Source: a virus (lineage: Duplodnaviria; Caudoviricetes). From it: a stretch of 43,548 nt of DNA. The notes under the pieces are model-generated. The model searched no databases. It saw only the letters and a list, made by a program, of their open reading frames with translations, and was not told where the DNA came from. The first letter of the stretch is position 1. Every line of letters begins with the position of its first letter. The position numbers were made by a program, and so were the translations under genes. Shown here piece by piece: positions 12,926-42,671 of the stretch. The stretch is taken from positions 1 to 43,548 of IMG/VR virus record IMGVR_UViG_3300026187_000029; one strand, given 5' to 3'.

Positions 12926-13897
12926 ATGCCTAGTACATATACAACAAATCTCGGCATCGAAAAGATCACAACCGGCGATCAGGCTGGCTTGTGGGGTGCC
13001 ACCACCAACACAAACTTCGACATCATTGATCAGGCGGTCAACGGGATTGTTGCCGCAACGCTTGCGTCTGCTGGCTCCTCAGGCGCTCCTAACACGTTAG
13101 ATATAACAAATGGTTCTACGTCAGACGGCAGAAACAAGTTTATTGAGCTTACGGATGGTGGCGATTTAGGGGCAACTGCCTACGTCCAGCTTACTCCAAA
13201 TGATGCAGAGAAGATCGTCTTTGTAAGAAACAGTCTTTCCGGCGGCAGGGCGGTGATTATCTTCCAAGGGACGTACAGCGCGTCCAACGACTTTGAGTTA
13301 GCGAATGGGAAGGATGCTGTCCTGAAGTTTAATGGGGCGGGCGCTGGCGCTACAGTGACGCAGGTGTTTGAGGATCTTGTTGCCACCAATGTAACGGCTA
13401 GTTTGACGGGCGATGTGACAGGCAATGTGACAGGAAATGTCACTGGTGCGGTTACAGGTAACGTGTCAGGAAATTTGACAGGCAACGTGACCGGAGACGT
13501 TACGGGCAATGTCACAGGCAATATCACTTCATCTGGAACGTCATCCTTCTCCAATATAGATGCGAATGGCGGGGCAATAGACGGGGTAGTGATTGGCGCC
13601 AACTCTGCGGCGGCAGGCACATTTACCAATCTAACGGCATCAGGAACGTCAACCCTTACCACAGTTGACATAAATGCCGGTGACATCGACGGGACTAACA
13701 TTGGTGCGGCCACCCCCGGCGCAGGCACTTTTAGTGCGCTTGCGACAACGAGCGATCACGTCAGGATTGATACCCCTCAAACACCAGCAAGTTCCTCTGC
13801 ATCCGGCACAGCCGGAGAGATAGCGTGGGATACAAACTACATATATGTGTGTGTCGCAACAAACTCATGGAAAAGGGTCGCACTGTCCACATTCTAA
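12926..13897 (+). CDS. tail fibre protein
   Basis: 323 aa, MPSTYTT.LG.E...WG.TTN.N N-terminus, GNVT repeats, GxIDGxxIG repeats, GEIAWD.NYIYVC...WKR C-terminus. Confidence 0.75.
   Translation: MPSTYTTNLGIEKITTGDQAGLWGATTNTNFDIIDQAVNGIVAATLASAGSSGAPNTLDITNGSTSDGRNKFIELTDGGDLGATAYVQLTPNDAEKIVFVRNSLSGGRAVIIFQGTYSASNDFELANGKDAVLKFNGAGAGATVTQVFEDLVATNVTASLTGDVTGNVTGNVTGAVTGNVSGNLTGNVTGDVTGNVTGNITSSGTSSFSNIDANGGAIDGVVIGANSAAAGTFTNLTASGTSTLTTVDINAGDIDGTNIGAATPGAGTFSALATTSDHVRIDTPQTPASSSASGTAGEIAWDTNYIYVCVATNSWKRVALSTF
13409..13528 (+). repeat. 12-bp tandem repeat encoding about ten G[ND][VL]T units
   Basis: GDVTGNVTGNVTGAVTGNVSGNLTGNVTGDVTGNVTGNIT. Confidence 0.85.
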
Positions 13898-13906
13898 GGA
13901 GGTGCC

Positions 13907-14281
13907 ATGTTACAAGCACTGATAGGGCCGGTAGCTAATCTTGTTGGCGGTTTTCTCAACAACAAGCATGAACAGGCGCAGGCCAAGCACCAAGCAAAAC
14001 TACAGGTAATTCAGAATGATGCCGATTGGGAAAGCAAGATGGCGGCGGCGTCCGGCAATAGCTGGAAGGACGAGTTCTGGACGATTGTTCTCGCGGTTCC
14101 GCTCTTTTGCCTTGGATATTCTGTTGTGGTTGATGACCCCGCTATTCTTCAGCGCGTTTCTGACAGCTTTGACGCTCTGGATACTCTGCCTGATTGGTAT
14201 CAGTATTTATTGTTCCTTGCGGTATCCGCGTCCTTCGGGATCAGGGGTGCTGATAAGCTGATGAAGCTGAGGGCGAAATGA
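13907..14281 (+). CDS. holin-like membrane protein (3TM/GTA-holin type)
   Basis: 124 aa, SWKDE.WT, LPDWYQY...ASFGIR; SD AGGAGG; upstream of the endolysin. Confidence 0.65.
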   Translation: MLQALIGPVANLVGGFLNNKHEQAQAKHQAKLQVIQNDADWESKMAAASGNSWKDEFWTIVLAVPLFCLGYSVVVDDPAILQRVSDSFDALDTLPDWYQYLLFLAVSASFGIRGADKLMKLRAK

Positions 14282-14478
14282 CACCTGAGCAATTAAATTC
14301 ATGGCGCGTTATTCCCAGACTGCTGATGCTGGCAATGCTGGTGATGACCTACCGCGTAGTTGAGTGGTTTATGGCGCTACCTGAGCCCACGCTTGAGCAG
14401 GCGGGTCTGGTTTCTGTCATGACTGGCGCACTGACGGGCGCGTTTGGCTTGTTTCTTGGGTCTGGCAAAAAAGAATGA
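14278..14478 (+). CDS. small two-TM membrane protein in the lysis cassette
   Basis: 66 aa, WRVIPR...WFM.L..PT.EQ. Confidence 0.6.
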   Translation: MTPEQLNSWRVIPRLLMLAMLVMTYRVVEWFMALPEPTLEQAGLVSVMTGALTGAFGLFLGSGKKE

Positions 14479-14825
14479 GCGAGTTTAAGTATTTCAAGCT
14501 GTCTGACTTCGACTGTCAAGAGACAGGCGAGAATGAGATGGACTTGGATTTCATCATGGATCTGGATGAGCTACGTGAAGCCTGTGGGTTCCCGTTTATT
14601 ATCACCTCGGGATACCGCTCAAACAGGCATAGCTTGGAGGCGAAGAAGGAAAAGCCGGGAATGCACGCCTATGGCATAGCGGCTGACATTCAGGTTCGGG
14701 ACGGCTCTGAGCGCATGCTGATCGTCCGAAAGGCGATTGAGATGGGATTTGGTGGGGTGGGAGTGGCCAAGTCATTTGTTCATGTAGACAAACGTCAATC
14801 GACGCCAGTGATGTGGGTATACTGA
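14475..14825 (+). CDS. endolysin, peptidase M15A family
   Basis: 116 aa, ITSGYR, H..G.AADI, GVGV...FVHVD zinc-peptidase motifs. Confidence 0.85.
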   Translation: MSEFKYFKLSDFDCQETGENEMDLDFIMDLDELREACGFPFIITSGYRSNRHSLEAKKEKPGMHAYGIAADIQVRDGSERMLIVRKAIEMGFGGVGVAKSFVHVDKRQSTPVMWVY

Positions 14826-16682
14826 GTGGCTCTTACCAAGATACAGTTCAAGCCGGGGATAGACAAAGAAGGCACCGAATACAGTGCTGACTCTGGCTGG
14901 TTTGATGCAGATAGGGTGCGGTTTAGGAAAGGCCGAGCGGAAACAATAGGCGGCTGGACTAAGTATGTCAGCACCGCGATTAAGGGCGTGGCGCGGTCCC
15001 TGTTTGACTGGGGTTCTGCGGATGGCAACAAATACCTCGGCATAGGCACAAACCTCAAGGTCTATGTCGAGACTGGCGGCATCATCTCTGACATCACGCC
15101 AATAAGGGCGACAACAGCCGCCGGAGACGTGACCTTCGCCGCGACTAACGGCTCGTCTACGCTGGTTGTCAGCGATACGGCGCACGGCGCTGTGGAAGGG
15201 GACTTTGTCACCTACTCAGGCGCGGTCTCTCTGGGCGGCAATGTTACTGCTGACGTGTTAAATCAAGAGTATCAGATAGACCTGATTGTTGACGCTAACT
15301 CGTACAATATTACCGCCAAGGACACCAGTGGGGCCACGGTCACAGCGAATGCTAGCGATACCGGCAATGGCGGCGCATCTGTGGTTGGCGTTTACCAGAT
15401 TAACACCGGCACCAACTTCTATGTGGACAGCACGGGATGGGGCGTAGGCGGTTGGGGTATCCCTGCTTTTGGCGAGTCCGTGGATCTGACGGTATCGAAC
15501 CAGCTTCGGCTGTACAGTCAGGACGCTTTTGGAGACGACCTGATTTTTAATCCAAGGGCTGGCGGAGTGTACTACTGGGACGAAAGTAGCGGCACGTCAA
15601 CTAGAGCAATACCGCTATCATCTCTTGGCGGCGCATCAAATACACCGACATCTGCACTACAAGTCATGGTCTCTGACATTGACAGGCACGTCATCTGTTT
15701 CGGGTGCAATCCACTAGGCTCATCGAGCATAGACCCGCTCTTGATCCGGTGGTCGGATCAGGAGAATGCTGGAGTTTGGACGCCAACGGCGACAAATAGC
15801 TCTGGCGGTCAGGTGCTGTCAACCGGAACCACCATTGTTGGCGCAATTAAGACAAGGCAAGAAATCCTGATCTTCACGGACGTGGGCATACAGGCCATGC
15901 GTTTTGTCGGCGCCCCGTTCATCTATTCTTTCTCTCCAGTGGCGGAGAATGTCAGCATAATCTCCCCGAAGGCTGGGGTTGCGGCGGCTGACGCGGTCTT
16001 TTTCATGGATCGAGAGGGGTTCTATGTGTACCGAGGTGCGGTGCAAAGACTGCCATGCTCGGTGCTGGACTATGTGTTTTCAAATCTCCAGTTTGACCAG
16101 AGGTTTAAGATATTTGCCACAACCAACCCTGATGACTCGGAAGTCACATGGCACTACCCCGTGGGGGGCGCAAGCGCAGACATCACAAACTACGTTACTT
16201 ATAACTATCTGGAAGAAAACTGGACAATCGGGACGCTGGATAGGGGCGCATATATCCACGCACCAACCAAAGAGTATCCGGTTGCGGCGTCAAACAGTAT
16301 TACTGACATAAACAATAATTACCTGTACATTCATGAGTTCGGGCACACCGCTGACGGAGAGCCCATGAACGCATACATTTCATCTGGGGGGATTGGGCTC
16401 GGAGACGGAGAGTCCTTTGTTTCTGTAAGGCGGGTAATCCCTGACTTCACCTTTAGGGGAAGGTCGTCTGCGGCAGACCTGTCTTTAGAGGTCAGGGGCA
16501 AGGACTTTCCACTGGACCCTGAGGCGGTGTTAGATACTGCCACCATTAATAGCTCAACAGGGCAGTACCATCTTCGGGCAAGAACCCGAGAGATGATAAT
16601 TAAAATATCGACAAACGGTTCTGAGTACGGCTGGACGCTGGGCGACTTGCGTTTTGACGTGAGAACGGACGGACGCCGCTAA
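14826..16682 (+). CDS. tail nozzle / tail tubular protein B-like
   Basis: 618 aa, FKPGI.KE...W.D.D.VRFR.G N-terminus, IRWSDQE, C-terminal G..R.D.R.DGRR; precedes the ejection genes. Confidence 0.7.
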   Translation: MALTKIQFKPGIDKEGTEYSADSGWFDADRVRFRKGRAETIGGWTKYVSTAIKGVARSLFDWGSADGNKYLGIGTNLKVYVETGGIISDITPIRATTAAGDVTFAATNGSSTLVVSDTAHGAVEGDFVTYSGAVSLGGNVTADVLNQEYQIDLIVDANSYNITAKDTSGATVTANASDTGNGGASVVGVYQINTGTNFYVDSTGWGVGGWGIPAFGESVDLTVSNQLRLYSQDAFGDDLIFNPRAGGVYYWDESSGTSTRAIPLSSLGGASNTPTSALQVMVSDIDRHVICFGCNPLGSSSIDPLLIRWSDQENAGVWTPTATNSSGGQVLSTGTTIVGAIKTRQEILIFTDVGIQAMRFVGAPFIYSFSPVAENVSIISPKAGVAAADAVFFMDREGFYVYRGAVQRLPCSVLDYVFSNLQFDQRFKIFATTNPDDSEVTWHYPVGGASADITNYVTYNYLEENWTIGTLDRGAYIHAPTKEYPVAASNSITDINNNYLYIHEFGHTADGEPMNAYISSGGIGLGDGESFVSVRRVIPDFTFRGRSSAADLSLEVRGKDFPLDPEAVLDTATINSSTGQYHLRARTREMIIKISTNGSEYGWTLGDLRFDVRTDGRR

Positions 16683-20929: not shown

Positions 20930-22557
20930 TGATGAACCTTCTTGAGATCGAAGATGCCGTAAAGGGCATGTCCGATCAGCAGTTGTTGCAGGAGGCCATG
21001 AGCCCAAGCGGCAACATTCCTCAGTTCCTGATCGTCTCCGAGAAGCAGAACAGAGACAAGGTGCGGAAAGAGTATGCCCAGAACAAGCCGCAGGAGGGCA
21101 CTGTCGCTCAGCGCATCATGGCGGGAGACTCTGGAATCATGGGGGCTATGCCACAACAGATGGCGATGGCTCCGCAAATGCCGCAGAGAATGCCTCAGAT
21201 GCCTCCCCCTCAGATGCCTCCGCAGGGCATACAGCAGGCTATGCCACCACAGAGAATGGCAGGCGGCGGGATTGTGCGGATGGCTAATGGCGGGTTTCTT
21301 GACGAGATTGTTGTAAAGGCGCCAAATCTAAGCGACCAAAAGCTAGAAGAGCTAATCATAGATGGGGTTCCAACTGTCGACCTGATACAGATGGGGTTCA
21401 CTACCGATGATATTTCCCGTGTTGGTTCTGCGATAGATCCAAGGGCGATCAGGGAAGGGAAAAAAATACTGAGTGCGGCCCCAGACGCAATATACAACAC
21501 CCTCACATTCGACCCAGATCGCGCTCAATCTATTGTAGAAAGGGGCCGAGGGGCGCAAGAGCAGGCAGTGCAAAGCGCCCAGCAGTCATTCTTGGGAAGG
21601 ACCGACATGCCCCGAGCAGAAGACCCAGCTAGGCCATTTCGCACCAGCCTCCAACTGCCTTTTGATCTCTCTTTGCAGGGCACAAAGTTTGAGCCAATCG
21701 CTGACCTTATTGGCTCAGGCATAACGAGCGTTGGTAACGCATACGACAGATTTATGGATCGGTCAGATAGCGTGGCAGAAAGAGCGGAAGATAAGCCCGC
21801 AGTTTTACCCGGAGGTATTGCTGACACCAAGCAAGGCAGTGGGAGTGTTCCCGCGGAAAAACTAGGCTTACTGCAAATTGACCCCAGCACGAATAAGCTC
21901 GCAGGGAACGAGGTTCTCGTTCCTAATGATGAAAGCGGCGCAGATAAAGCTATTGATGAAAAGGGCGGCTACGACGCCGCACGGGTTGATTATGGCGATG
22001 CAACTCTGCCATTTCTGCCCTCAACCGGATCTGGCGCTGACTTAGCCGCGTCAAATCTTGAGAGCCTGATGAGCATCATAGAGGAGCGGTCAGCAAGGAA
22101 CAGTGCGACATCTAGGGGGCTGGCTCTCGCCAACATAGGCGCAGGCATGATCGAGGGCAAGACGGGGCAGGGAATCAGAGACGCCGCCAAGGTTCTCTCA
22201 GAGGACGCCAAGGCTCAGGGACAAGCCCAAATGGAAATGGCTAAACTGAGGACCGCGGATGCCCGCGAAGGCCAGAAGCTGGCGTTAATGAAGCAAGACC
22301 TTGTTAACAAGTTAGGCATAACAGATAGGCAAAGCGCAATGGCGGCTTTGAAGAGCCTTGGCGATGACATAAGAATCCTCTCTGCCGACAGGGCGTACAT
22401 GATGACGCAGGAAGGAAAGGATGCGGTTGGCAGGCTGATTGAGCAACAAAAGCTACTTAGAGCTATGCTTGTTCCCGATGTGTTTCCAAAGATCGACCCT
22501 CAACAACAGGCGCCAACCACCAGTCCATCGGGTTTTAGCATTAACAGGCAGGCCTAA
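20926..22557 (+). CDS. internal virion / DNA ejection protein
   Basis: 543 aa, M/P/Q low-complexity linker, MAxGG motifs. Confidence 0.6.
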   Translation: MMMNLLEIEDAVKGMSDQQLLQEAMSPSGNIPQFLIVSEKQNRDKVRKEYAQNKPQEGTVAQRIMAGDSGIMGAMPQQMAMAPQMPQRMPQMPPPQMPPQGIQQAMPPQRMAGGGIVRMANGGFLDEIVVKAPNLSDQKLEELIIDGVPTVDLIQMGFTTDDISRVGSAIDPRAIREGKKILSAAPDAIYNTLTFDPDRAQSIVERGRGAQEQAVQSAQQSFLGRTDMPRAEDPARPFRTSLQLPFDLSLQGTKFEPIADLIGSGITSVGNAYDRFMDRSDSVAERAEDKPAVLPGGIADTKQGSGSVPAEKLGLLQIDPSTNKLAGNEVLVPNDESGADKAIDEKGGYDAARVDYGDATLPFLPSTGSGADLAASNLESLMSIIEERSARNSATSRGLALANIGAGMIEGKTGQGIRDAAKVLSEDAKAQGQAQMEMAKLRTADAREGQKLALMKQDLVNKLGITDRQSAMAALKSLGDDIRILSADRAYMMTQEGKDAVGRLIEQQKLLRAMLVPDVFPKIDPQQQAPTTSPSGFSINRQA

Positions 22558-22561: not shown

Positions 22562-25500
22562 ATGCCTACCACGATTGTCAACTCCCCAGACGGGAGGTTG
22601 ATTGATGTCAATCATCCTGATGGGGCAACTGACGAACAAATACTTTCGTATGCGGCACAGCAATATGCGCTAGACCCCTCTATAGCCTATGACGCTTCTG
22701 ATGCAGACGATGGCACCACGGCCCTCGGCGCATTAAGTGAGTTCGGCAAAAGGGCTCTGGGCGGTATCGGCACTGGTTCCGCACGGGTAGTGTCGGGTCT
22801 TGGACAGCTTCTCCCCGGTGTTGACGACCAGTCTATGATCGACATGGAGATGGGTGTTAGGCGGTCAATATCCGACACTCTCGACTACGACCCAGCCTAC
22901 GACGAAAACTACATAGCCCAGCTTGGAGAGGTTGCTGGGGAAATGGTGCCTCAGGTGGCGTCCTTCTTCCTTCGCGGCGGCATCCCTGCAAGAGCGGCCC
23001 AACTGGCGACAATGATTGGCCCAGCGGTTTCTGAGGGCGGCATGGATCGCGCCACAGAGGAGCAGGAGCGGGGCGAGGCACTCACCGATTACGAAAGACT
23101 GGCATCCAAGGGTGCTGATGTTGTTCTAGGCAGGCTTGAGCAGTTTGGTTTGCCCAGCAGGATACTGAAAGGACTGCCCAAGGGCTTTTTCCAGACCGCA
23201 GATGGCAACCCAATACTCCGCAGAATTGAGTCCATGGTTATGTCAGGCCTGTCTGAGGGCACTCAAGAAGCCGCGCAGGGCATACTCAGGGACATCACAA
23301 CCAAAGCCATTTATGACCCAGACAGGGCAATCGCTGATAGCGTAGTCGAAGACTTCCAGCTAGGCGGCGGCGCTGGTGCGTTGTTCGACTTTATAATTAG
23401 CTCTGTTACTGGGGGCAACAGGCGCACACCTAAAGTTGACGCTCCTGAAGAGATGCGTCCTCCCACTGACGAGGAGATAGAGGCAGAGCAACAGGCCAGA
23501 GCAAAGGAAGCCACCAAGGAAGACAGACGCCGAAAAGCAATGGACCGTGCGCTTGCCGCTCAAGCCCCCACCACCCCGCCCGACCCCAGAGACACTACAG
23601 GTATAGATCCAGAGTTATCAGTCGATGAGATAACCGCTCAGATTGTGGAGATTGCTGGCGCGTATCGCGGCAGGACAACCATCCCCACGGGCTCTCTTTT
23701 TGAGGTTCAAGAGCAGGAGGGCAAGTTCTACGTTACCCATGAGGGCGAGCAGTTTGGTCCGGCGATGCGCGACCCTATCAAGGCGCAGGAGGTCAAGGCC
23801 GCTCTCAGCGAGGTTAGCGACAATTTAAACGTCGAACGCACAATCGTAGAGTCAGGAATAGACTACACCCCTCAAGAATCCGCCAAGATTATGCGGTTTT
23901 ACCAGCAGATCAGGAACGCGGGCAGGCGATACACCCCAGAAGATCCGGCAGAGCCGACAATCCCCCGGCAACCAGAGCCTCCTGCTCGGATTAACTTGTT
24001 AGAGAATAGGATAAATACCGCCCTAAACCGGAAAGGTATTGACACCCCGATCAACTCAGCAGAAGGGGCGGCGGTAGTTCAGACCATCATTGGCCGTCCG
24101 GTGTCAGAATCTACTCCGCTAGCAGACCTTTCTGCTGTTGAGCAGGATTATGTCCTTCAGACTATAATCGAGGCTGACGCCCTTACCCCCCAAGCGAGAG
24201 CCACCACTGAAGCCAGAGAACAGGTTGACCCTGTGACTGGCCTTGTCGTTCCTAGTCAGCCTCGGGTGACAGGGCCGCGAGCCACCCTTTCCCTCCCCAA
24301 CTTTGCGGCTATCGCTAAACCTGTTGAGCCTACCGTCCCTTCAGAGCCGGTTGAAGCGGGAAAAGAAATCGTCCCGTTTGAGCCAGAACAAGAAACCCTG
24401 CAAGACAAAGCAATAGAAAGCACGATTGCAAGACAGTTGCAGGCGATCCTGAAGTCTGTTGGCCTTGCGGATGATTTTGTGGTCAAGACGGTAGATCAGG
24501 TTGGCAGGGCGAGAAGAGACTCCGCTGGCAACGTGTATATATCGCCCATCAAAAAGAAGTCTGGAGACCAAGAAAACTACGTCACATTTGGTAGTGCTCA
24601 GTTGGCGGCAAAAGTTATCCAGATATCGACGGACGGCATCAAGTATCGAGTTGACCAAGGCATGTCGTTTGAAGAGGCGACTGCCGCTGTAATGAACCAT
24701 GAAATACTGCACGCGCTACGCGGCATGGATTTGTTCACGGCTCAAGAATACAGCCTGCTTGAGAGACTTACGCGCCAATACAGCAAGCCGGGAACCGACA
24801 TGACCTATGGCCAGTGGGCGGTTAAAACATACCCAGAGTTGTCCGCTGTCGCTCAACAGGAAGAAGCGATTGCGGAGATGATCTCCGACTCCCTGACCAA
24901 CAACGTGTTGATAGACGGCAAGGCGCAGGCGCTGTCCGGCAAACCGGCAGGCATAATCAGGCGGATTGTGGATCTGTTTAAGCGTCTTGTTGGTTTTGCC
25001 CGGGACAATGACATCAACTCCTATCAGGAACTTGTTAACGCCATACAGACTGGGCAGGTTGGTGCGAGAGAGCGAGGTCAGGTACGCACCCTGATGAAGA
25101 CCGAAAAGGAGCGCGGCCAAGTTGAGGAGCGAAGCCTTACGACTGAGGATCTTCAGTTTAGAACAGGCACTCGCCCAACCAAAGAGCAACTCGATGCGGT
25201 TTACAACAACCTAGTTCAGCAGGTTAAACAGCAAGTTGGGGACGCCCCTGAAGTGGTTGCTGACTCTGAGCTTGAGGAGGTTATTGAAGCAAGGGGGCTG
25301 AAGTTCCCAAAGAAAGATCAAACCATACCCAGACTCGCCAGAGCAATAGAGCAGGGGTTTAATGTAGACACCGTTTATTATCACGGGACAAGTGTGCCCG
25401 ACATAAGGCGATTTGATGGCAGTGTGGGCATGGGTGTCGTGTCCGGTCACTTTACGACAAGGCCGCGTTTTGCTAATCAGTTTGCGCCAGCGATAACAAT

Positions 25501-28500
25501 ACCCGACCTAGGTCAGATTCCGACTGTGTATCCAGTGTTCCTGAGGTATGGGCGGGAAAACGAGCTTGGCGGCATCGCTGAAATAAGGTCTCTCATACAA
25601 GACGAAGATAATCCTGTCAGGTTTTCGTTGAGCAAGCCCTTGAGCCGTCAGCCAAGACTAAAGGCTGACTTAGAGGCATTTTTTGCCGCGGAGCTAGAAA
25701 AGGGCAGGCTTTATGGCCCCGACGAGACAAAGCTAAAGAGCTTTGAGCAACAGGACTTGGCGCGGTTTTATTACGAAGGGGTCAGACCTGTTGAGTCTGT
25801 CGCAGAGGACTTGGCAGAAGATTTTCACAACAATGCGGCGCAAGTCGCTTATGCGGAGATCACAGAAGGTCCATATGATGTAGATTTTGCTCAGCTTGAA
25901 GTTATCGCTCCCTATATGAAGGAGGCTGGGTTTAAGGGCTACTACGACATTGAAGAGGCGGGCAAATCATACAGCGGCATTGCCATGTTCAACAGCGAGG
26001 ACATCAAGGGCGTATTCGCTGATTTCGACCCCGAGTCCGTGCCAGAGGGCAGTCGCTACGAAGACGACATCATGTACAGCAGGTCTGCTGTTGACATGTT
26101 TGAAGAGAAAGCATTCGATCATATTGGCACATCAGGGCGAGAGACGCTGATTCCGGGGCGCATAAATCCGGCGCACAAAGCTAGGCATACCATAGTGGAC
26201 ATGCCGATTGATATGTTTTTGGGGCTGGCACAGGTCGGGCATCAAGACAGAAAGGAAAAGGGGGTTGAAGACCTTGTCAGGAGGGGCGTGAAATTTAGCG
26301 AATTGCCCCAGCTTCACACTAAGCCGGTTGACTCAGAGGATTATGGGCCGGTCCTGCTTGTTGGTGGTCATGAGGGAAGGCATCGAGCAAGGGCGCTCAA
26401 AGCCGCTGGCTACACAACAATGCCTGTCCGAATTTTCGACCAGACAATACGCTGGGGAGAGCAAGACAACCCCAAGAGCTTTGACTATCTGGATTACTGG
26501 CCTGAGATGGTGATCTCTGAGGCGGATATAAATAGGAAGACGGACCCATCTAAGGCTGGATACCAGCCTGTCGGCCTTTACACATACCCGATGTTCATTA
26601 ACAGAGACGGTACGGTCAACTTTGGCTCTCCAATCGACAGGCCGTCCGTTATTTTTGAGGTTGCGCCAGACCCAAGAAACGAAGAGCTATCAAATAGATG
26701 GAACAGTCTTAGTGATGATGCGCGTTTAGAGATATCTGAGCGAGTGGCGAGGCTGGTGGTGCCGTCTGCACTAGCGGAGGTGAGCGCAAGTGGGGAGATT
26801 GTCAGTCAGATAGGCAGTTATTACGACGACACAAACCCGTCGTTTGCCGTGCGCCTTACCAGTGGAGACCCAACGGATGCCGCGTCCGCCGTGGGCTTTA
26901 TCTTACAGCAAGAGTCCATGATGATCGTCTCGCCCCGTCCATACGAGGGCGCAGATAGCCAGTTTGATCCTCGTCTTGAGCAGGAAACTCGCTCAATCCC
27001 CGCTGTGTTTATCAGAATTGGCGACAAGCCTTTGGCTGAGGTGAATAAGATATACCAGAGGCTGAGAGCGGTTGAGGGAGTTCCTGAGTTTAGTGGCCAG
27101 ACCACCATCGACGGAACGATGATGATACTTTTGGGGGCGGATGCAGACGCTGATGCGGTGGTTGATGCGTTTGACAACGCTCTTGATGGCATATACCCTA
27201 TTGACTCAACTGTTGTATTTTCTTCATTTCCAGAGTCTAAGGACTACGACTATGAGACAAAAGTTCCTGACACCAGAATACGTCGAGAAACTGCTCGGGA
27301 ACGGCTTATTGATCTCCGCGCCGAGGCGCAAAACGAAGTCGCCAGAGCAATCGAAAGGCTCAAGGGAACCGCTCTTGACGCCAGAAGCGGTAGCGCAAAT
27401 TCGCCAGATTATGAACAAACAGTCAGGGGAGCAATAACCCCCGACGGCAGACTGGCATTAACGCACTTCGCCACAAAGCAACTAGACAGAACAGACCCCA
27501 CGCTTGCTGGCACTGGCGCAGACAGGGCCAAGAGAAACAGGCCCAGAATAGGGACGTGGTTTGGCGTAGTTGACGCCGAAGTCGACCCGTATATAAAAGA
27601 GCCAATGATCGGAAACGTCCCCAATGAATTTTTTGTGGACCCCGCCCAAATATACGTCATTGACGATGCAAGCAACCCCTCCGCTCCTTCTGATCCAGAG
27701 AAGGTCTGGACGACCCATCCAAACGGCGACCCTAATTATGAGGCAATCGGCGAAAAGGTAAGGGAGCTTGGGTTTAATGGATACCTAATCAACGCCCCAG
27801 CCCTTGGTAAAGTCGTGGTTATGCACGCACCTCTGAGCAAGGACGGCTCAGACGACATCATGGAAAGTCGCAGGTCTATCAGGCCAATAGATCAGGCCAA
27901 ACTAGACAAGGCTGTAGAGCAAAACGAAAAAGAAGCGCGTAATGCTGGGTTCAGCGTGCCTCTTTACAGCGTTAAGGCATCTCCAGAGGCTCAGTACATC
28001 GCAAGGAACCCAGAGGCCGCGGCTGAGCCAGAGGAAATCCTTGAGTCTCGGGCGCCAGAGTACAACACAAAGACAAAGTCTTTTATCAATCGGCTAATTG
28101 AAAGCACGCCGGAGCGTGCAGACCCCATGCGCCAGTATATGGACGTTACTGGGGATAACAGCACTATTGACTACAAGTTAACACAGGCAAAGCAGGCGCT
28201 TGTCAATCGCTATGCTCGACTAGAAAAGCTGAATCAGAGGTACTTCAAAGACTACCTAGCAGACAGTAGTTCTATCGCCGCAGTTCTTTTTGCCGACAGA
28301 TCCGCTGGCGTCACTGCTGAAGCAATCAAGAGTGGCGTTCCTCAGTACAGGAATGGACTGACCAAGGTTGTCGATTTTTCCTACAACGGAAAACAGTACC
28401 GGGGTCTTGTTGATATCATTAACCTGTTAAGAACAAAAAAATACGGCGACATCAGCGAGTTTGCTCAGGCCTACGCAATCGCCATGCGAGGCGAAAGGCT

Positions 28501-30715
28501 CAACAAGGAGGGCAAGCCAACGCCCGTCTCACAGCAGGACATAGACGAGGCCCGAGAAAACATAAAGCAGTTTACCGACACGAACGGGTACAACCCCGTC
28601 GTTGAGTGGTATGGCGCTTGGCAGGCATACAACAATCAGGTCATTACATTCCTAGAAGATACTGGCGTTATAGACGAGAAAGGCGCCGAATCTTGGAGGC
28701 TTGCATCAGACTACATACCGTTCTACAGGGCGCTTGAGCCAAACTACGACACCGGCAAGATAACCAACCACCCCTTCGGTGATCTCAAAAAGCTGGGGGC
28801 ATTCAAGCCATACAAGGGCAAGACGGACAAGATCAACGTGCCTTTGGTGGAGTCGATTGTAAAGAACACCGCCGCCGCGATTGACTTGGGCATGAGGAAC
28901 GTAGCTCAACAGCGCATTGCGCGAGACATGCAGAAGCTACAGCTTGCCAGACAGGTTAAGTACGGCACGCAAGGGCCAGACATAGTTACCCTCAAGGTTC
29001 GCGGTAAGCCCGTGTCATTCCGCATATATGACCCTCTTATCCTTGACTCGATGACGGCGATAGACGGTAGCGGGATTGAGGAGATATCCCGCATATTCTT
29101 TGGGCCAGCGTCAACACTGCTCAGAGAAACGGTCACACGAACCCCCGGGTTCATGCTTGCTAACATGTTAAGGGATAGCCTTTCCGCTTTTGTTACCTCT
29201 GGCTCCAGCTTCGTCCCCTTGATCGGGACGACCAAAGGGTTCTTTTCTAACATCAACAACCTAGAAAGAACCGGCGTTATCGGGGGCTACGACTTCAAGG
29301 TTGATCAACAGGATATAGGCAAGACGTTCCAAGAAGAGGCGGAAAGAAGAAAACGTAACGGAATGCCGGTTAACATGTTCAAGACGCTGTGGGATGCGTC
29401 TGGCAGGCTTACGACAAGATCGGATGCGGCAACACGGCAGGCTGTTTACGACGAGGTTTACGCCAGAACTGGAAACGAAGCAGAGGCTTACTTCCAAGCA
29501 ATGGAGGTGCTTAACTTCTCCAGACGCGGAAGCAATGGAGTGGTGAGGGCCATAACCGCGGCGATACCATTCCTGAACGCAAGAATACAAGGCCTCGATG
29601 TTCTTTGGCGTAGCGGGCTGGGCGTAAACACTGCCAAGCGAGGCGTCCCTAGGGGGACGGCGGCTCTTTCTTTCGCCATGAGAGGAGCGATCATCAGCTT
29701 TGCCACCGCCTTGTACTGGATGATGGTAAGCGATGACGATGAGTATAGAGAGGCGAGCAGGGAGGAAAGAGATAACAACTGGCTGTTCCCTGTGCCGTGG
29801 CTTGAGGGCGTCGGCGCAATAGCTATCCCCATTCCCTTTGAAGTTGGCCTGATATTCAAGACCATTCCAGAAGTAATGCTCGACACCACCGCTGGGAACA
29901 GAACATCTCGCCAAGCATTCCAGAGCTTCAAGCAGGGACTTGGGTCAACACTTGAGCTTAACTTGTTGTATGGAATACAGGCATATGCCCCCCTTCTTGA
30001 GGCGCACTCAAACTACAACAGCTACACAGGACGCCCGATAGTTCCCATCTGGCTGACAGGTCAGAGGCCTGAATACCAGAGGACAGAGTCAACGTCAGAA
30101 ACCGCCATATTCTTGCAGAAGGCAACCCCCTATCTAGCGGCTATCCCGATGCTTGGTATGGACGAGGGCGGCACATCGCCGATGAAGATAGAGCACGTTA
30201 TCAAGGGCTACACGGGTAGCATGGGCGGCTTTATCCTTAGCTGGACTGACAGGGTGATGAGAAGCAAGTCGGGCAGAGAGGCGATGGCTAACGCTGGATA
30301 TGATGTTAGCCAGCCAGAAATGCCCAGCTTGGCGTTATACGACTATCCAGTGGTGAAGAGGTTCTTAACCGCCCCAGAGGGAACGGGCTTGAAAGAGCAG
30401 TTTTACGACCTGTCCAACGAGGTCCGTCAGGACTACAACACAATCAACCAGATCCTAGAGCGCGGTGATGAAGACGAGTTCAATAGCCTTTACCCCAAGA
30501 TAGAAGGATTGCTTGAGGTCAGGAATGATGTTGAATACATCAGGAAGGTGCTTTCTGACATAAGGCAGGACAAAAAGGCAATTATGCGTTCTGAGATGAG
30601 CGCGGAACAGAGACGCTACATGCTTGACCAACTGAAAGCCTATGAAAATCAGATGCTGAAAGTCGTCCCATTGCTTGAGGCTCGTGCTGACAGGTCAGCG
30701 ATAAGAGGGTTGTAA
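22562..30715 (+). CDS. giant polyvalent virion protein (zincin-like peptidase, ART-like, ParB-like, LPD38-like domains)
   Basis: 2717 aa; HEILH at 24698-24712 with downstream EE; YYHGT..HFT..VYPVFL at ~25376-25545; EGRHR at 26372-26386; IPIPFE.G at ~29825. Confidence 0.8.
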   Translation: MPTTIVNSPDGRLIDVNHPDGATDEQILSYAAQQYALDPSIAYDASDADDGTTALGALSEFGKRALGGIGTGSARVVSGLGQLLPGVDDQSMIDMEMGVRRSISDTLDYDPAYDENYIAQLGEVAGEMVPQVASFFLRGGIPARAAQLATMIGPAVSEGGMDRATEEQERGEALTDYERLASKGADVVLGRLEQFGLPSRILKGLPKGFFQTADGNPILRRIESMVMSGLSEGTQEAAQGILRDITTKAIYDPDRAIADSVVEDFQLGGGAGALFDFIISSVTGGNRRTPKVDAPEEMRPPTDEEIEAEQQARAKEATKEDRRRKAMDRALAAQAPTTPPDPRDTTGIDPELSVDEITAQIVEIAGAYRGRTTIPTGSLFEVQEQEGKFYVTHEGEQFGPAMRDPIKAQEVKAALSEVSDNLNVERTIVESGIDYTPQESAKIMRFYQQIRNAGRRYTPEDPAEPTIPRQPEPPARINLLENRINTALNRKGIDTPINSAEGAAVVQTIIGRPVSESTPLADLSAVEQDYVLQTIIEADALTPQARATTEAREQVDPVTGLVVPSQPRVTGPRATLSLPNFAAIAKPVEPTVPSEPVEAGKEIVPFEPEQETLQDKAIESTIARQLQAILKSVGLADDFVVKTVDQVGRARRDSAGNVYISPIKKKSGDQENYVTFGSAQLAAKVIQISTDGIKYRVDQGMSFEEATAAVMNHEILHALRGMDLFTAQEYSLLERLTRQYSKPGTDMTYGQWAVKTYPELSAVAQQEEAIAEMISDSLTNNVLIDGKAQALSGKPAGIIRRIVDLFKRLVGFARDNDINSYQELVNAIQTGQVGARERGQVRTLMKTEKERGQVEERSLTTEDLQFRTGTRPTKEQLDAVYNNLVQQVKQQVGDAPEVVADSELEEVIEARGLKFPKKDQTIPRLARAIEQGFNVDTVYYHGTSVPDIRRFDGSVGMGVVSGHFTTRPRFANQFAPAITIPDLGQIPTVYPVFLRYGRENELGGIAEIRSLIQDEDNPVRFSLSKPLSRQPRLKADLEAFFAAELEKGRLYGPDETKLKSFEQQDLARFYYEGVRPVESVAEDLAEDFHNNAAQVAYAEITEGPYDVDFAQLEVIAPYMKEAGFKGYYDIEEAGKSYSGIAMFNSEDIKGVFADFDPESVPEGSRYEDDIMYSRSAVDMFEEKAFDHIGTSGRETLIPGRINPAHKARHTIVDMPIDMFLGLAQVGHQDRKEKGVEDLVRRGVKFSELPQLHTKPVDSEDYGPVLLVGGHEGRHRARALKAAGYTTMPVRIFDQTIRWGEQDNPKSFDYLDYWPEMVISEADINRKTDPSKAGYQPVGLYTYPMFINRDGTVNFGSPIDRPSVIFEVAPDPRNEELSNRWNSLSDDARLEISERVARLVVPSALAEVSASGEIVSQIGSYYDDTNPSFAVRLTSGDPTDAASAVGFILQQESMMIVSPRPYEGADSQFDPRLEQETRSIPAVFIRIGDKPLAEVNKIYQRLRAVEGVPEFSGQTTIDGTMMILLGADADADAVVDAFDNALDGIYPIDSTVVFSSFPESKDYDYETKVPDTRIRRETARERLIDLRAEAQNEVARAIERLKGTALDARSGSANSPDYEQTVRGAITPDGRLALTHFATKQLDRTDPTLAGTGADRAKRNRPRIGTWFGVVDAEVDPYIKEPMIGNVPNEFFVDPAQIYVIDDASNPSAPSDPEKVWTTHPNGDPNYEAIGEKVRELGFNGYLINAPALGKVVVMHAPLSKDGSDDIMESRRSIRPIDQAKLDKAVEQNEKEARNAGFSVPLYSVKASPEAQYIARNPEAAAEPEEILESRAPEYNTKTKSFINRLIESTPERADPMRQYMDVTGDNSTIDYKLTQAKQALVNRYARLEKLNQRYFKDYLADSSSIAAVLFADRSAGVTAEAIKSGVPQYRNGLTKVVDFSYNGKQYRGLVDIINLLRTKKYGDISEFAQAYAIAMRGERLNKEGKPTPVSQQDIDEARENIKQFTDTNGYNPVVEWYGAWQAYNNQVITFLEDTGVIDEKGAESWRLASDYIPFYRALEPNYDTGKITNHPFGDLKKLGAFKPYKGKTDKINVPLVESIVKNTAAAIDLGMRNVAQQRIARDMQKLQLARQVKYGTQGPDIVTLKVRGKPVSFRIYDPLILDSMTAIDGSGIEEISRIFFGPASTLLRETVTRTPGFMLANMLRDSLSAFVTSGSSFVPLIGTTKGFFSNINNLERTGVIGGYDFKVDQQDIGKTFQEEAERRKRNGMPVNMFKTLWDASGRLTTRSDAATRQAVYDEVYARTGNEAEAYFQAMEVLNFSRRGSNGVVRAITAAIPFLNARIQGLDVLWRSGLGVNTAKRGVPRGTAALSFAMRGAIISFATALYWMMVSDDDEYREASREERDNNWLFPVPWLEGVGAIAIPIPFEVGLIFKTIPEVMLDTTAGNRTSRQAFQSFKQGLGSTLELNLLYGIQAYAPLLEAHSNYNSYTGRPIVPIWLTGQRPEYQRTESTSETAIFLQKATPYLAAIPMLGMDEGGTSPMKIEHVIKGYTGSMGGFILSWTDRVMRSKSGREAMANAGYDVSQPEMPSLALYDYPVVKRFLTAPEGTGLKEQFYDLSNEVRQDYNTINQILERGDEDEFNSLYPKIEGLLEVRNDVEYIRKVLSDIRQDKKAIMRSEMSAEQRRYMLDQLKAYENQMLKVVPLLEARADRSAIRGL

Positions 30716-33255: not shown

Positions 33256-33565
33256 AGCCTTTGATTGATATAACGCCTTGGTCTACTCGCCTCATTAGCG
33301 TCTTAATTATGTTGAACAAGAACTGCTCTGACTTGTCGATTTTTTTTTCAAAGGTCGCTCCACCGCCGCCCACGTCAAACTGGTAATGGCATTTGTGGCA
33401 TAGGTCTGCAACGCACAGGTCGTGGGGCTTGTGTCCAGTCCCTTTTCCTAACAAGTTAGCTCTAAGTCCGGTGTAATGCGCCGCAACTACGGTGCCATCT
33501 CTGACACCGCAGTTGACGCAGGACTGATCCCGCGCCGCATCTAGCAGTTTCTTTGACCTAATCAA
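33242..33565 (-). CDS. DUF1364/YbcO-like HNH-type nuclease
   Basis: Likely TTG start at 33565 (IRSKKLLDAARDQSCVNCG); V.AH, G.G.K.HD, LCHKCH. Confidence 0.65.
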   Translation of the reverse strand: MIRSKKLLDAARDQSCVNCGVRDGTVVAAHYTGLRANLLGKGTGHKPHDLCVADLCHKCHYQFDVGGGGATFEKKIDKSEQFLFNIIKTLMRRVDQGVISIKGYDNE

Positions 33566-37292: not shown

Positions 37293-37329
37293 GCTACCAA
37301 TAGCATGAAATTAGGAGGTAGTCAAACAA

Positions 37330-39078
37330 ATGAACAGCTTGGAAGACTTCGTTCTGAGTCACAACCAAGACGCCAGAGAGCGTTGCCCCGATTGCTCAGA
37401 CGCACGCAAAAAGAAAAGCATAAAGACACTTTCAATCACTGTTAAGCCCGACCAAACACTGTATCACTGTCACCACTGCGGACTGTCGGGGTCATACAGG
37501 CGTAAAAAATTCTATGAGGCTCACATGAATAAAGAGAAAGTAGTAAAGATACCAACTCAACTAAATTACAATGTAGAACTTGTTAAGAGCTTTTTCTCTG
37601 CCCGCGGCGTGGAGGTAGATAATCTCAACGAACTCCCACTGATGACCACCGGCACCAAATTCTTTGGCGGCGTCGAGAAGCAGGCTGTCGGGTTTGTGTA
37701 CGGCACGCGGGAGAGTCCATCTGCCATCAAGTGGCGCTCTGTTGAAGGTAAGGGGTTCACCTGTGATGGGGCGCCAAGATCATTTTACGGCATCGAAAAC
37801 ATAGAGGAAGAGGCCGAGGAATTAACGATAGTCGAGGGCGAGTGTGATGTTATCGCTCTGGCTAGCATCGGAATCAAGGCTGTTTCCTGCCCCAATGGGG
37901 CGCCGATAAAGGTATCCCACAACCGCATCGACCCCGAAGAGGACAAGAAGTTTGCGTTTATCTGGAATGAACGCGAGCGTTTGGACCGTTGCAAGAAGGT
38001 CGTGCTGGCAACAGATGCGGATGAGGCAGGGGAGGCGCTGGCAGAAGAGATCGCCCGTCGAGTGGGCAGAGCAAAATGCTGGCGGGTCAGGTTTCCCGAG
38101 GGCGCCAAGGATGCAAATGATGCCGTTAACAAGTTAGGTGCAGATGAAACCCGCCGGATCTTTGACAATCCCGAGCCAGTTCCATTGTCTGGAGTGTATG
38201 GCGCCAGTGAGTACCTCGACGCGGTAAAAGATATCTATCAGAATGGTCACGGCAGGGGAGCGTCTACTGGGTTTGATGCTATTGATGACCTGTTCACCAT
38301 CGCAGAAGGCCAGCTTTCGGTGGTCACCGGCATGCCATCAAGCGGCAAGTCAGAGTTCATCGACCAGATCATGATCAACCTAGCACGGCGAGAGTCATGG
38401 AAGTTTGCGGTCTGCTCGTTTGAGAACCCTCCCCACATGCACATAGCCAAGCTCGCCGAGAAGGTTTCGGGCAAGCCGTTCTACACCGGACTCAGTCAGC
38501 GCATGACAGAGGATGAGCTTGGGGAAGCTGTCGAGTTTATCAATGACCATTTCGTGTTTCTGGAGTCTAAGGATGGGGGTCTCAGCACGATAGACTCAAT
38601 CATCGACAGGGCTAAGCAGGCGGTCATGCGTATGGGGGTCAGGGGTCTGATCATCGACCCGTACAACTACATCGAGTCAAGCAGTCAGGAAGAGCATAGC
38701 AATATCAGCCAGATGCTGACCCGAATCACCAGCTTCGCCAAGGCCCACGGCATCCACGTCTGGTTTGTCGCCCACCCCCAGAAGATGTATCCCCGAGAGG
38801 ACGGAAGCTACGCGGTGCCCAAGGGCATGAATATTTCCGGTTCGGCGGCATGGTTTGCCAAAGCTGACCTAGGGGTGACAGTTCACCGGACAGATGAATC
38901 GGTTGAGATTCATTGCTGGAAGTCGAGATTCAAGTGGGTGGGATCGCAGGGTGTCGCCTATCTTAATTACAACATGTCTAACGGTACATACACGGAGCAT
39001 GTTGCCACACCCGAGCCTTCGCCCAAGGCGCTGTCCAAATTGCGTGGTCGGGAGTGGGATGACTTCGATGAGTTTTAG
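37330..39078 (+). CDS. primase-helicase (T7 gp4/Twinkle-like)
   Basis: 582 aa; Zn finger CPDC/CHHC, TOPRIM (VEGE.D, D.D.AG, KDAND), Walker A GMPSSGKS, IIDPY, VAHP; SD AGGAGG. Confidence 0.92.
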   Translation: MNSLEDFVLSHNQDARERCPDCSDARKKKSIKTLSITVKPDQTLYHCHHCGLSGSYRRKKFYEAHMNKEKVVKIPTQLNYNVELVKSFFSARGVEVDNLNELPLMTTGTKFFGGVEKQAVGFVYGTRESPSAIKWRSVEGKGFTCDGAPRSFYGIENIEEEAEELTIVEGECDVIALASIGIKAVSCPNGAPIKVSHNRIDPEEDKKFAFIWNERERLDRCKKVVLATDADEAGEALAEEIARRVGRAKCWRVRFPEGAKDANDAVNKLGADETRRIFDNPEPVPLSGVYGASEYLDAVKDIYQNGHGRGASTGFDAIDDLFTIAEGQLSVVTGMPSSGKSEFIDQIMINLARRESWKFAVCSFENPPHMHIAKLAEKVSGKPFYTGLSQRMTEDELGEAVEFINDHFVFLESKDGGLSTIDSIIDRAKQAVMRMGVRGLIIDPYNYIESSSQEEHSNISQMLTRITSFAKAHGIHVWFVAHPQKMYPREDGSYAVPKGMNISGSAAWFAKADLGVTVHRTDESVEIHCWKSRFKWVGSQGVAYLNYNMSNGTYTEHVATPEPSPKALSKLRGREWDDFDEF

Positions 39079-39234: not shown

Positions 39235-39714
39235 ATGACTAACAAGTTACACACAGACTTAGGAACCAAGGAAATCCACAAGCGCCATGCTGTGATGGTC
39301 GAGGGCGGTACGATGCCTCGGGCCAAGGTGATGGATCAGACGCTGATTGATCGGTATCTGATGAATGGCTTGCTGACACTGGGCGAGCACCAAGCGGGAG
39401 AATACCTCCTCAATCAGGCGATGAAGGCGGGTATCTTTACCAAGCCGCTAAGGTATGAGGCGGGTTCTGGCGAGGCCAACCCAGACTCAATGGCGTCTGA
39501 CGCCCTGATGCGCTACGGCAGGACGCTCAATCTGGTCGGCAAACGGTACGGGGATTTTGCAAAGTACCTTGTCGAAGAGGTTGTGATCCACGGGTGGGAT
39601 GTGTCGAAATCCAAGGACCGGCTTGTCACCCTGAAGAAAGGGCTGGAGTGGATCGCTGAGAGGAGGATGGCGGGGGGCCGAAACCCTACCCGTCATTTAA
39701 GGAGCGGTGGATGA
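39235..39714 (+). CDS. hypothetical protein, possible transcription regulator
   Basis: 159 aa helical; D.Y...G.L...E..AGE.L; follows the replication genes. Confidence 0.55.
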   Translation: MTNKLHTDLGTKEIHKRHAVMVEGGTMPRAKVMDQTLIDRYLMNGLLTLGEHQAGEYLLNQAMKAGIFTKPLRYEAGSGEANPDSMASDALMRYGRTLNLVGKRYGDFAKYLVEEVVIHGWDVSKSKDRLVTLKKGLEWIAERRMAGGRNPTRHLRSGG

Positions 39715-39795
39715 AGCTATGCTATATCACAGGGGATAGGGGCATACATAGCCTCTGACGACGCCACCGCTCGCCGTGTAGGAGTGTGCCCCAGA

Positions 39796-40612: not shown

Positions 40613-40616
40613 GTGA

Positions 40617-41239: not shown

Positions 41240-41466
41240 GCCGCAACCTCCTCTTTTTTCAACGAAATAAATTCAGCCACAGTCAGGTCGGACTGGCTGG
41301 CCTCATCCCAGAGCTTGTGAATATCGTCGAGCGACCAATGGCTGTAATCCTCTACTCCTAACGAGTCAAGAATAAGACAGCAGTATGGTTCACCGGCAGA
41401 CCCTGAGATCGCAGAGCGCACCATCCGGTCAGTGTTGAGCGAATCTTTTTTCGGGAGCCTAATCAT
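41236..41466 (-). CDS. hypothetical protein
   Basis: 76 aa, coupled. Confidence 0.55.
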   Translation of the reverse strand: MIRLPKKDSLNTDRMVRSAISGSAGEPYCCLILDSLGVEDYSHWSLDDIHKLWDEASQSDLTVAEFISLKKEEVAA

Positions 41467-41734
41467 AAAGCCAGTCCCCCTCGCTCTCGTTAGCGTAGCA
41501 ACCGCCGATCACGATGCCGCACTCGTTTACGATGTCGGCCTCGCCCTCTGAGATGACTATGTTGGCGTCAAAGCCCAGCTTGCTGGCGGCGCTCCGCATG
41601 GCGCTCTCAGACCTGAGCACCGTGTCAACGGGGTGGCCCAATCGCCAAACGGTAAACGTGGAATCTGGCGCGTCTTCTGCCTCGGGGCAGTTGGGGTGAT
41701 GTCCGCTTGATCTCAAGCATTCTCTACAAAGCAT
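41459..41734 (-). CDS. hypothetical protein with N-terminal CxxC..HHxxC motif
   Basis: 91 aa, SD AGGAGG. Confidence 0.55.
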   Translation of the reverse strand: MLCRECLRSSGHHPNCPEAEDAPDSTFTVWRLGHPVDTVLRSESAMRSAASKLGFDANIVISEGEADIVNECGIVIGGCYANESEGDWLYD

Positions 41735-41798
41735 GATGATATCCTCCTACAGATACGTTTTGATGATAACAGGCAGTGATGCCCTCGTCTAACCTTTC

Positions 41799-41993
41799 TT
41801 ACCTACTATGGACAATTAGTTCCTTGTCGAGCCGCAAGCTGTCCACCTCTACCTCGATGCCCAGCAGTTTGCCATCGACTTCCACGTTGCTCGCCTCCTC
41901 CTCAGCCAAGCGTTTCGCTTCCTCCTCGTCGGGAGCCTCGACCTCGATCTCCCACTCGCGCATTTCTGTGACCCATACCGTATATGTATTCAT
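41799..41993 (-). CDS. small acidic hypothetical protein
   Basis: 64 aa, Y.V...E.....IEVEA..EEEA motif; SD GAGGAG. Confidence 0.6.
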   Translation of the reverse strand: MNTYTVWVTEMREWEIEVEAPDEEEAKRLAEEEASNVEVDGKLLGIEVEVDSLRLDKELIVHSR

Positions 41994-42003
41994 GTATCTC
42001 TCC

Positions 42004-42375
42004 TCAAAAAAGATTCAATTGCTCTTCGTCTGACAGCGACCTGATCCACATGTTGAACAGGCGCATCGCTTCGGCCTTGCTGATCCCGTACCAATCTTTT
42101 AACAAGTTAGGAGCATGACGCATGTCCGATTCTTCGTAACGTGCCATCTCATTCAGCACGTCGAGATAGCCCCCATCATCGGCTGGTTTCTCTGGGGGCA
42201 GGATGCTGGCGTATGCCGTCTTGCGGTAGCCAGTCTGGCGCGGGACGCCGCAGACATCTGAGTGCCTGCCGCTGACCCACGGCTGTCCCACCATCATGAA
42301 GTTCTTGGCATCCTCTGCTGAGTCTGCCTCGACCTCCAATTCATATGACTCGATGACTGTGACTTTGTACTTCAT
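42004..42375 (-). CDS. hypothetical protein
   Basis: 123 aa, N-terminal YKV.V.ES..LEVEADS.EDA motif similar to the neighbour. Confidence 0.6.
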   Translation of the reverse strand: MKYKVTVIESYELEVEADSAEDAKNFMMVGQPWVSGRHSDVCGVPRQTGYRKTAYASILPPEKPADDGGYLDVLNEMARYEESDMRHAPNLLKDWYGISKAEAMRLFNMWIRSLSDEEQLNLF

Positions 42376-42638
42376 GCGGCCTCCCCGCTCTCGTCGCGCA
42401 TTACATCCTTCAGGGCTTCACGCGCTTCGATAACCATCTGAACCATGGCCGCTTGATCTGCTGGCTTGCCCTCAAAACGTGAGATCAGGTCATGCAGAAG
42501 TTCGTCGATAACAACGACCATCGTGCCTTTACAAAAATCGTTCCCATCGTCAACGACCTCATTAACCTGAGAGGCGAAGTCCGCAGACTCGCGCTCAATT
42601 AATTTCTGAACCATTTTGCTGTCTTGAATAGAATCCAT
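42372..42638 (-). CDS. hypothetical protein
   Basis: 88 aa, SD GGAGG. Confidence 0.55.
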   Translation of the reverse strand: MDSIQDSKMVQKLIERESADFASQVNEVVDDGNDFCKGTMVVVIDELLHDLISRFEGKPADQAAMVQMVIEAREALKDVMRDESGEAA

Positions 42639-42671
42639 TTCAAATCCCTCCTACGGGATAACTTGTTAGTG

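Follow-up and report, generated by a model that had tools for sequence, protein, structure and literature searches.

The stretch analysed here, a 43,548-nucleotide phage contig (IMG/VR record IMGVR_UViG_3300026187_000029; hereafter the window), carries a dispersed palindrome, TAAC-NN-GTTA, which we found to be the local form of a family-wide motif, TRAC-NN-GTYA, that on the evidence of sequence comparison is inherited together with three adjacent early genes. This trio encodes a PF11348-like (DUF3150) protein, an AAA ATPase (MoxR-like AAA+) and a PF13203+PF09967 (DUF2201) peptidase-vWA protein, the PF11348 assignment having been made on close homologues and not on the query itself. That the palindrome is enriched, conserved across amino-acid changes and co-inherited with the trio, and that this lineage has moved from TGAC to TAAC, was observed directly. 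As to function, we regard it as an evenly balanced proposition that the palindromes are dispersed operators or roadblocks of a phage-made regulator.

A sequence-only reading had listed ten copies of TAAC-NN-GTTA, all at coordinates that proved exact. Seven are TAACAAGTTA or its reverse complement, eight fit YTAAC..GTTAR, and the four one-mismatch copies that had been named were confirmed among 14 in total; the figure of about 115 TAAC tetramers was too low, as the window holds 131. Combining the TAAC/GTTA arms with other spacers (0-11 bases) gave at most two matches each, and in dinucleotide shuffles (n = 100) the mean was 0.20 sites and the maximum 2, with ten reached in 0/100. Nine of the ten sites are coding, all read as xxT AAC NNG TTA, with a coding-strand centre of AA in three and TT in three; the site at 42659 is intergenic. 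When synonymous codons were permuted with proteins and codon usage kept (n = 1000), the mean was 0.345 and the maximum 4, and nine was reached in 0/1000 permutations, so the enrichment survives the protein-preserving shuffle that had been proposed as a check. The common phase had been taken as a sign of selection. The nine copies do share it, but this is to be expected, since one phase is closed by a stop codon and 299 of the 345 null hits (87%) fall in phase 2, which puts the chance of nine out of nine at about 0.28 by arithmetic from the null. Window positions 1-13089 hold no perfect TAAC-form copy. The ten sites, with their retention in relatives (G labels where needed), are:

13090..13099, TAACACGTTA, in the tail-related gene 12926-13897 (P-N-T-L); retained in 0/7 aligned relatives.
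22305..22314, TAACAAGTTA, in 20926-22557 (V-N-K-L); lost in the sole aligned relative.
23992..24001, TAACTTGTTA, in the gene for a 2717-aa protein (I-N-L-L); retained in 0/2 aligned relatives.
28420..28429, TAACCTGTTA, in the 2717-aa gene; the orthologous codons of G051 read TGACTTGTTA; retained in 1/6 aligned relatives.
29161..29170, TAACATGTTA, in the 2717-aa gene; TAACTTGTTA in G051, with a Met/Leu change; retained in 1/6 aligned relatives.
33449..33458, TAACAAGTTA, in the HNH-like gene 33242-33706 (minus strand); retained only in G001 (1/11).
38127..38136, TAACAAGTTA, in the primase-helicase gene; TGACAAGTTA in 6/7 motif-rich relatives and in 0/4 trio-less ones.
39240..39249, TAACAAGTTA, codons 2-5 of the open reading frame (ORF) 39235-39714; TAACAAGTTA, TGACAAGTTA or TGACAAGTCA in 7/7 motif-rich relatives and in 0/3 aligned trio-less ones.
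42100..42109, TAACAAGTTA, in ORF 42004-42375 (minus strand); retained in 2/2 relatives having the gene.
42659..42668, TAACTTGTTA, intergenic, between the vWA stop codon and the ribosome-binding site (RBS) of the next early gene; at the same position in G051 and somewhat farther from the vWA stop in G114.

At orthologous codons relatives carry TGAC where the window has TAAC, and we therefore define the family motif as TRAC-NN-GTYA. The window has 17 copies against 2.98 expected. Across 26 records in all, observed/expected counts were 21/4.8 in G051, 15/3.4 in G001, 17/2.7 in G005, 16/2.4 in G053 and 11/1.6 in G012, with 11/1.5 in G011, 10/1.2 in G014, 10/2.9 in G038 and 7/1.7 in G008; the five longest motif-rich relatives have 15-21 copies each. 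Motif-poor records gave 6/3.6 (G004), 1/4.1 (G016), 1/1.9 (G003), 0/1.7 (G002), 1/1.2 (G010) and 1/1.3 (G017), and G031 was intermediate (8 vs 3.05). The seven window copies that only the wider motif captures, some of which are expected by chance, are:

5236..5245, TGACAAGTCA.
11756..11765, TGACGTGTCA; retained in G114.
13459..13468, TAACGTGTCA.
15251..15260, TGACGTGTTA; retained in G001 and G114.
30054..30063, TGACAGGTCA; the sole coding one in phase 1.
30688..30697, TGACAGGTCA.
41359..41368, TAACGAGTCA; retained in G051 and G001.

The sequence-only reading had proposed to look for the motif in orthologous genes of relatives, and conservation was indeed found there; its idea of selection on synonymous positions alone did not hold up, because orthologous sites change Asn/Asp, Leu/Ser and Met/Leu yet stay within the motif. 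Specifically, the helicase site at 38127 and the site at 39240 persist although Asn/Asp and Leu/Ser replacements occur in them, in line with the degenerate positions of the motif. Where leucines are conserved, TTA itself was kept at a background rate of 7/26 to 19/36, and since the relatives are few clades, the conservation counts are not independent events. Half-sites of the TAAC form make up 23/34 in the window and less than half in six other genomes. Relative to G051, GAC had become AAC in the window at 3/10 motif positions and at 11/340 positions elsewhere; relative to G001 the numbers were 2/8 and 7/280, counts that are small and come from a window that had been chosen for TAAC. This lineage shift fits a reader protein with an altered preference.

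The window ends inside the last gene of the trio:

42691..43548 (minus strand), 3' part of the HEXXH-peptidase/vWA (DUF2201) gene.

Two loci that are 99.9% identical to the window over the overlap (L409 and L410) show the trio intact beyond the contig end, with DUF3150 of 318 aa, AAA of 381 aa and an eleventh TAACAAGTTA within the AAA gene. When the ORFs of the 26 records were clustered, the trio was the sole credible gene set present in motif-rich and in no motif-poor genomes, the other clusters with the same presence pattern being patchy or alternative-frame-like. The motif-poor or weak records include nearly complete ones (G004 and G016, 98%; G031, 92%), and in G003, G010 and G017 both genes flanking the trio position are present. 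Conversely, a record retrieved via the ATPase alone, G114, has 21 sites against 3.8 expected. When about 23,000 palindrome classes were scanned without bias in each genome, the motif class came first in 7/8 trio-bearing family members (p 7e-12 to 5e-5) and in 0/6 trio-less members, whose best classes (p 6e-6 to 2e-4) were a different motif each. On a helicase tree, in which G053 sits on a long branch, trio presence changes at least three times; the clade of the window is sister to a trio-less clade that lacks the motif as well, except for the weak excess in G031. Taken together, the codon permutation, the unbiased scan and the site conservation refute an origin of the palindromes by chance or as a side effect of protein sequence and codon usage: no permutation reaches the count, sites are kept across amino-acid changes, and the same motif tops independent genomes. 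The coding phase is as chance predicts, and chance alone would supply about 3 of the 17 wider-motif copies, but as an account of the whole this explanation has a negligible probability.

Spaced palindromes also mark other phages with these genes. The palindrome TTAC-N8-GTAA occurs 30 times in RHph_TM3_14A (0.42 expected), GGTT-N7-AACC 22 times in MinM2 (0.30 expected), AGTT-N6-AACT 15 times in G022 (1.1 expected) and AACG-CGTT 27 times in G116 (2.2 expected); the signal was weak in G028 and G115, and G117, with an ATPase match, has no palindrome. RHph_TM3_14A, G020 and G022 combine strong palindromes with AAA and vWA genes, DUF3150 going undetected in them. The N4-like phages PEV2 and pVa5 (AAA and vWA; DUF3150 not detected) yielded no enriched palindrome. 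We further collected 22 DUF3150-bearing viral loci, 20 of which were long enough (8 kb or more) to score; 9/20 reached p<1e-7 for a spaced palindrome, against 0/57 random loci (Fisher 1e-6), the controls being the 57 loci of that size among 120 drawn. Some of the 20 are related, and the comparison is confounded in that the 20 loci are centred on early regions. A second phage family was retrieved by its polymerase (80 loci, 27 with enough upstream DNA). The trio is present in 26/27 of these loci, and in 21/26 a palindrome passes p<1e-6, the motifs being many and varied; the single trio-less locus (1/27), too small a set for a matched control, ranks last. Among DUF3150 regions of four bacterial genomes, three were at noise level; a plasmid-like DUF3150 contig (G463:C3, L279-L280) has a loose, mostly intragenic excess of GTTC-N5-GAAC.

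The palindromes of the other trio-bearing phages lie mostly at stop codon-RBS junctions, with some intragenic, and one second-family palindrome stands directly upstream of the first early gene. At L275 (693, 1811, 5093, 7778 and 8314), and also in L264, L270 and L262, a unit of palindrome, RBS and start is repeated near-identically before early genes, and the gene order behind these repeats varies between phages, like cassette boundaries. The cultured MinM2 (L244) and RHph_TM3_14A (L214) carry 22-30 dispersed palindromes per 50 kb scanned, none annotated in their records. Among near-identical phages (L451 915-1628, L454 426-1124; also L457, L459 and L462) we observed two different 25-bp palindromes, L457 and L462 being mosaics with both site types.

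Could these elements act in RNA or single-stranded DNA, in processing or recombination, or as methyltransferase targets? The palindromes of other trio phages are long enough to fold and bound genes of variable order. The arms in the window, however, are 4 bp with a 2-base centre, and that centre is conserved (AA/TT in 60/118 sites of seven genomes), which a loop would not need; nor did any methyltransferase family match among the 65 window ORFs. We therefore consider this very improbable. A 4-bp stem with a 2-base loop gives no stable hairpin, and together with the twofold symmetry and the A/T-rich centre this leads us to infer recognition of the sites, in double-stranded form, by a protein dimer.

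The sequence-only reading had described the palindrome as a genome-wide protein-binding mark of the matS, SlmA or Noc kind, assignable to no known factor, rather than an operator. The first part stands: the sites are of a selected, genome-wide, protein-binding type and match no known factor tested. The host-type mark gained no support in the one candidate host family examined, and the exclusion of operators goes too far. Marks read by MatP, SlmA and Noc are dispersed palindromes tolerated in coding DNA, with host-encoded readers; matS has a 3-base centre, and all three sequences differ from the window motif. In 61 genomes of the candidate host family, the one to which the Luminiphilus-titled assembly discussed below belongs, the motif was not enriched, TRACAAGTYA being rarer than its reversed control in 55/61, which is a weak test as the true host is not established. 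More generally, a host transcription factor or nucleoid protein might read the sites, the trio phages sharing a host group and TGAC-to-TAAC reflecting a host change. This would account for a motif that stays constant while the trio proteins of family members are only 30-47% identical, and for a window DUF3150 that is 94-95% identical to those of TGAC-preferring relatives; moreover, a bacterial MarR-type operator, TTAACYRGTTAA, has identical arms. Near-identical phages of another family nevertheless switch palindromes, and with the host-family counts also pointing the other way we find a host reader unlikely. Loss of the motif with the trio, and a palindrome private to each phage lineage, suggest that the binding protein is phage-encoded.

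Operators should not have been excluded so firmly: the copies with the best conservation are found where a gene starts (39240) and at a stop-RBS junction (42659), and in other trio-bearing phages the corresponding palindromes lie mostly at early-gene junctions. It is this placement, shared with other families and with establishment regulons, that makes us choose operators or roadblocks; repression or roadblock function itself is the least secure element, drawn by analogy with stoperators and plasmid establishment regulons. A phage-encoded dimeric DNA-binding protein would occupy the TRAC-NN-GTYA sites and, once accumulated, would damp early and read-through transcription; more speculatively, the ATPase and the peptidase might remove the bound protein and so reset the switch.

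Several results weigh against this proposal or against its link to the trio. In the second family the palindromes of L451 and L454 differ, yet their DUF3150, AAA and vWA proteins are 97%, 99% and 91% identical. Homologues of the second-family first early gene were sought in the family of the window and none were found, and no DNA-binding fold was recognised in the C-terminal half of DUF3150, for which a VIA search matched only generic helical (four-helix) bundles (residues 163-301). Three of the nine coding sites (13090, 22305 and 23992) are kept in no aligned relative. The wider-motif sites show no intergenic bias, with 16/17 in ORFs in the window (ORF coverage 95%) and 20/21 in G114; regular spacing was looked for and was absent, the sites being randomly spaced, and neither property is operator-like. 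Finally, G031 holds 8 sites (3.05 expected) despite having no trio, and G008, which does have the trio, holds only 7 (1.74 expected). The intergenic share is high only in G005 (8/17), and a sigma-70 promoter scan of 36000-43548 gave 4 sites versus 5.5 in shuffles, none on a palindrome.

For the second family, the reader is likely the first early gene and not the trio, because this gene tracks the palindrome while the trio is near-identical. Its identity is 37% between L451 and L454 (different motifs) and 62% between L451 and L459 (same motif), and the mosaic L457 has an L451-type first early gene with an L451-type site just upstream. This fast-changing gene (about 235 aa) of the L451-group phages is the best candidate for a new DNA-binding family. 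The first-early-gene families of other phages had no match in the window family, and no significant relatedness among these families was seen (best 6.7%). The early operon of the window family opens with DUF3150 and, at most, several small ORFs that are not conserved. DUF3150 might, most tentatively, be the reader there as the only conserved head-of-operon candidate left; its structure model is a confident one (pLDDT 85). Myb/D5-like helix-turn-helix ORFs were rejected as readers, being present in trio-less, motif-poor G002, G003, G004 and G010 and not found in motif-rich G053. In the window they form a tandem of small ORFs (39972-40301 and 40298-40705, minus strand) with a hydrophobic C-terminal stretch, possibly membrane-anchored DNA binders, and they are common in the family regardless of the motif.

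If DUF3150 were the reader, the sites could be self-marks: DUF3150, bound to them genome-wide, would recruit the AAA+/zinc-peptidase-vWA pair, and this pair would remove or cut host defence proteins that sit on the incoming phage DNA. Coding bias and random spacing in the window family leave room for such loading marks, and the motif and trio are co-inherited. Indirect support may come from an IncC plasmid AAA_5 gene, a possible counterpart near DUF3150 and VWA genes, which is reported to promote type I restriction resistance (PMC7498323). Yet second-family specificity is independent of the trio, strong palindromes occur without detectable DUF3150 (RHph_TM3_14A, G020, G022) and AAA and vWA genes occur without a palindrome (PEV2, pVa5). 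The IncC stretch gave only G/C-run inverted repeats, and on balance we are doubtful of self-marks. The broader version, a widespread system in which trio-bearing aquatic phages, paying for it with amino-acid changes where needed, write a private, fast-changing palindrome as a self-mark for trio loading against host defence proteins and DUF3150 is a new DNA-binding fold in the window family, strikes us as no less doubtful; if true, it would account as well for the orphan repeats found in Cluster O phages, in MinM2 and in RHph_TM3_14A.

The window itself is an uncultured aquatic phage of podovirus type, with capsid, SU10-type adaptors, a 2717-aa LPD38 protein, Sak, exonuclease, RusA and primase-helicase genes. 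Searches found no cultured close relative, the closest cultured matches to a structural protein being 30-39% identical (DSL-LC04, HTVC027P, CRP-901 and MinM2). One relative lies in a metagenome-assembled genome (MAG) titled Luminiphilus, the only bacterial MAG with a relative, and another in an archaeal MAG, so that MAG binning is unreliable here; the latter, G051:C20 (L180, L182-L185), is a near-complete 61-kb relative that contributes 13/21 TRACWWGTYA sites of that archaeal MAG. The 2717-aa protein (22562-30715) has its LPD38 domain at the C-terminus; relatives differ widely in the N-terminal two thirds of this protein and in the 543-aa gene before it, and G001 has no match to the protein. 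CTAG-N7-CTAG units are clustered at 37223-37291, in the gap that lies upstream of the primase-helicase gene, with larger clusters at two places in G001 and G004; they are iteron-like and perhaps mark an origin. Other enriched palindromes in relatives (CTAG-N7-CTAG, CCGG-N8-CCGG) were set aside as tandem repeats or local clusters. The inverse arrangement GTTA-N4-TAAC occurs at 13096, 13451, 16194, 17108 and 22311 (5 vs 0.36 expected), an excess that is not significant given about 3,300 tests and includes copies overlapping true sites.

A literature search, mainly of open texts without supplements, found no paper linking such palindromes to the trio. The closest precedent is the repeat of Cluster O mycobacteriophages. 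Its description (PMC4351075) presents the 17-bp Corndog repeats as a dispersed palindrome with an A/T-rich centre and unknown function, mostly at the same places in relatives and about one third coding, with no integrase reported and an AAA ATPase among the leftward genes. Our scan recovered this repeat (22 vs 0.2 expected in 19.7 kb). Like Cluster O, the window has many palindromic copies with an A/T-rich centre, coding and intergenic, at positions common to relatives. Unlike the degenerate 4-bp arms and 2-bp spacer of the window, Cluster O repeats have invariant 7-bp arms and a 3-bp spacer (TGTTCGG-NNN-CCGAACA), and most window copies, rather than one third, are coding. The Corndog ATPase is a 566-aa AAA protein of another type than that of the window trio. 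The gene after it encodes gp95 (L414 7467-8267), whose family matched DUF3150 with an hhalign probability of 0-1.3%, no better than controls, with the N-termini in register.

Cluster A operator/stoperator arrays likewise have numerous sites in each genome and motifs that diverge from one related phage to another, and both traits recur here; their sites are asymmetric, transcription-oriented and read by the known immunity repressor of temperate phages (PMC6550527, PMC4351075), whereas those of the window are symmetric and no repressor or integrase family matched among its 65 ORFs (contig 77% complete). The Reg576 regulon of plasmid p576 uses promoter-bound dual heptamers and a ribbon-helix-helix reader at repeated operators (PMC6294495). 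Repeated operators of this kind would shut off early counter-defence genes after entry, a layout that matches other trio-bearing phages, but most window copies are intragenic, late genes included. The AdcR/ZitR operator, a 12-bp TTAACYRGTTAA with one or two sites per promoter in the streptococcal zinc regulon (PMC6372160), shares the TAAC/GTTA arms and the 2-base spacer; it differs in that a YR centre occurs in 0/10 window sites and full TT..AA flanks in 1/10, and 9/10 window copies lie inside phage genes rather than at promoters. The IncC hde operon region has the same three kinds of gene as the trio (AAA_5 vcrx089-090, with DUF3150 and VWA genes downstream) and, as at trio loci, these stand beside ssb, recombinase and exonuclease genes and are expressed on entry. 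Unlike the window, it holds no comparable spaced palindrome in the 40.7 kb scanned.

Dispersed phage palindromes of obscure function had thus already been recorded in Cluster O, but were tied to no gene. The present finding connects them, in phage families that are not related, with a three-gene module that is common and unstudied, and it offers a clear case of a DNA site that steers protein sequence. It also comes with natural experiments: some sister phages have the module and the motif and others do not, one lineage has shifted its preference, and near-identical phages with swapped palindromes indicate one candidate gene. The cultured MinM2 and RHph_TM3_14A make the link testable. Set beside the known systems, the window motif would be a new form of dispersed regulator site in phages, one whose link to a gene can be put to the test.

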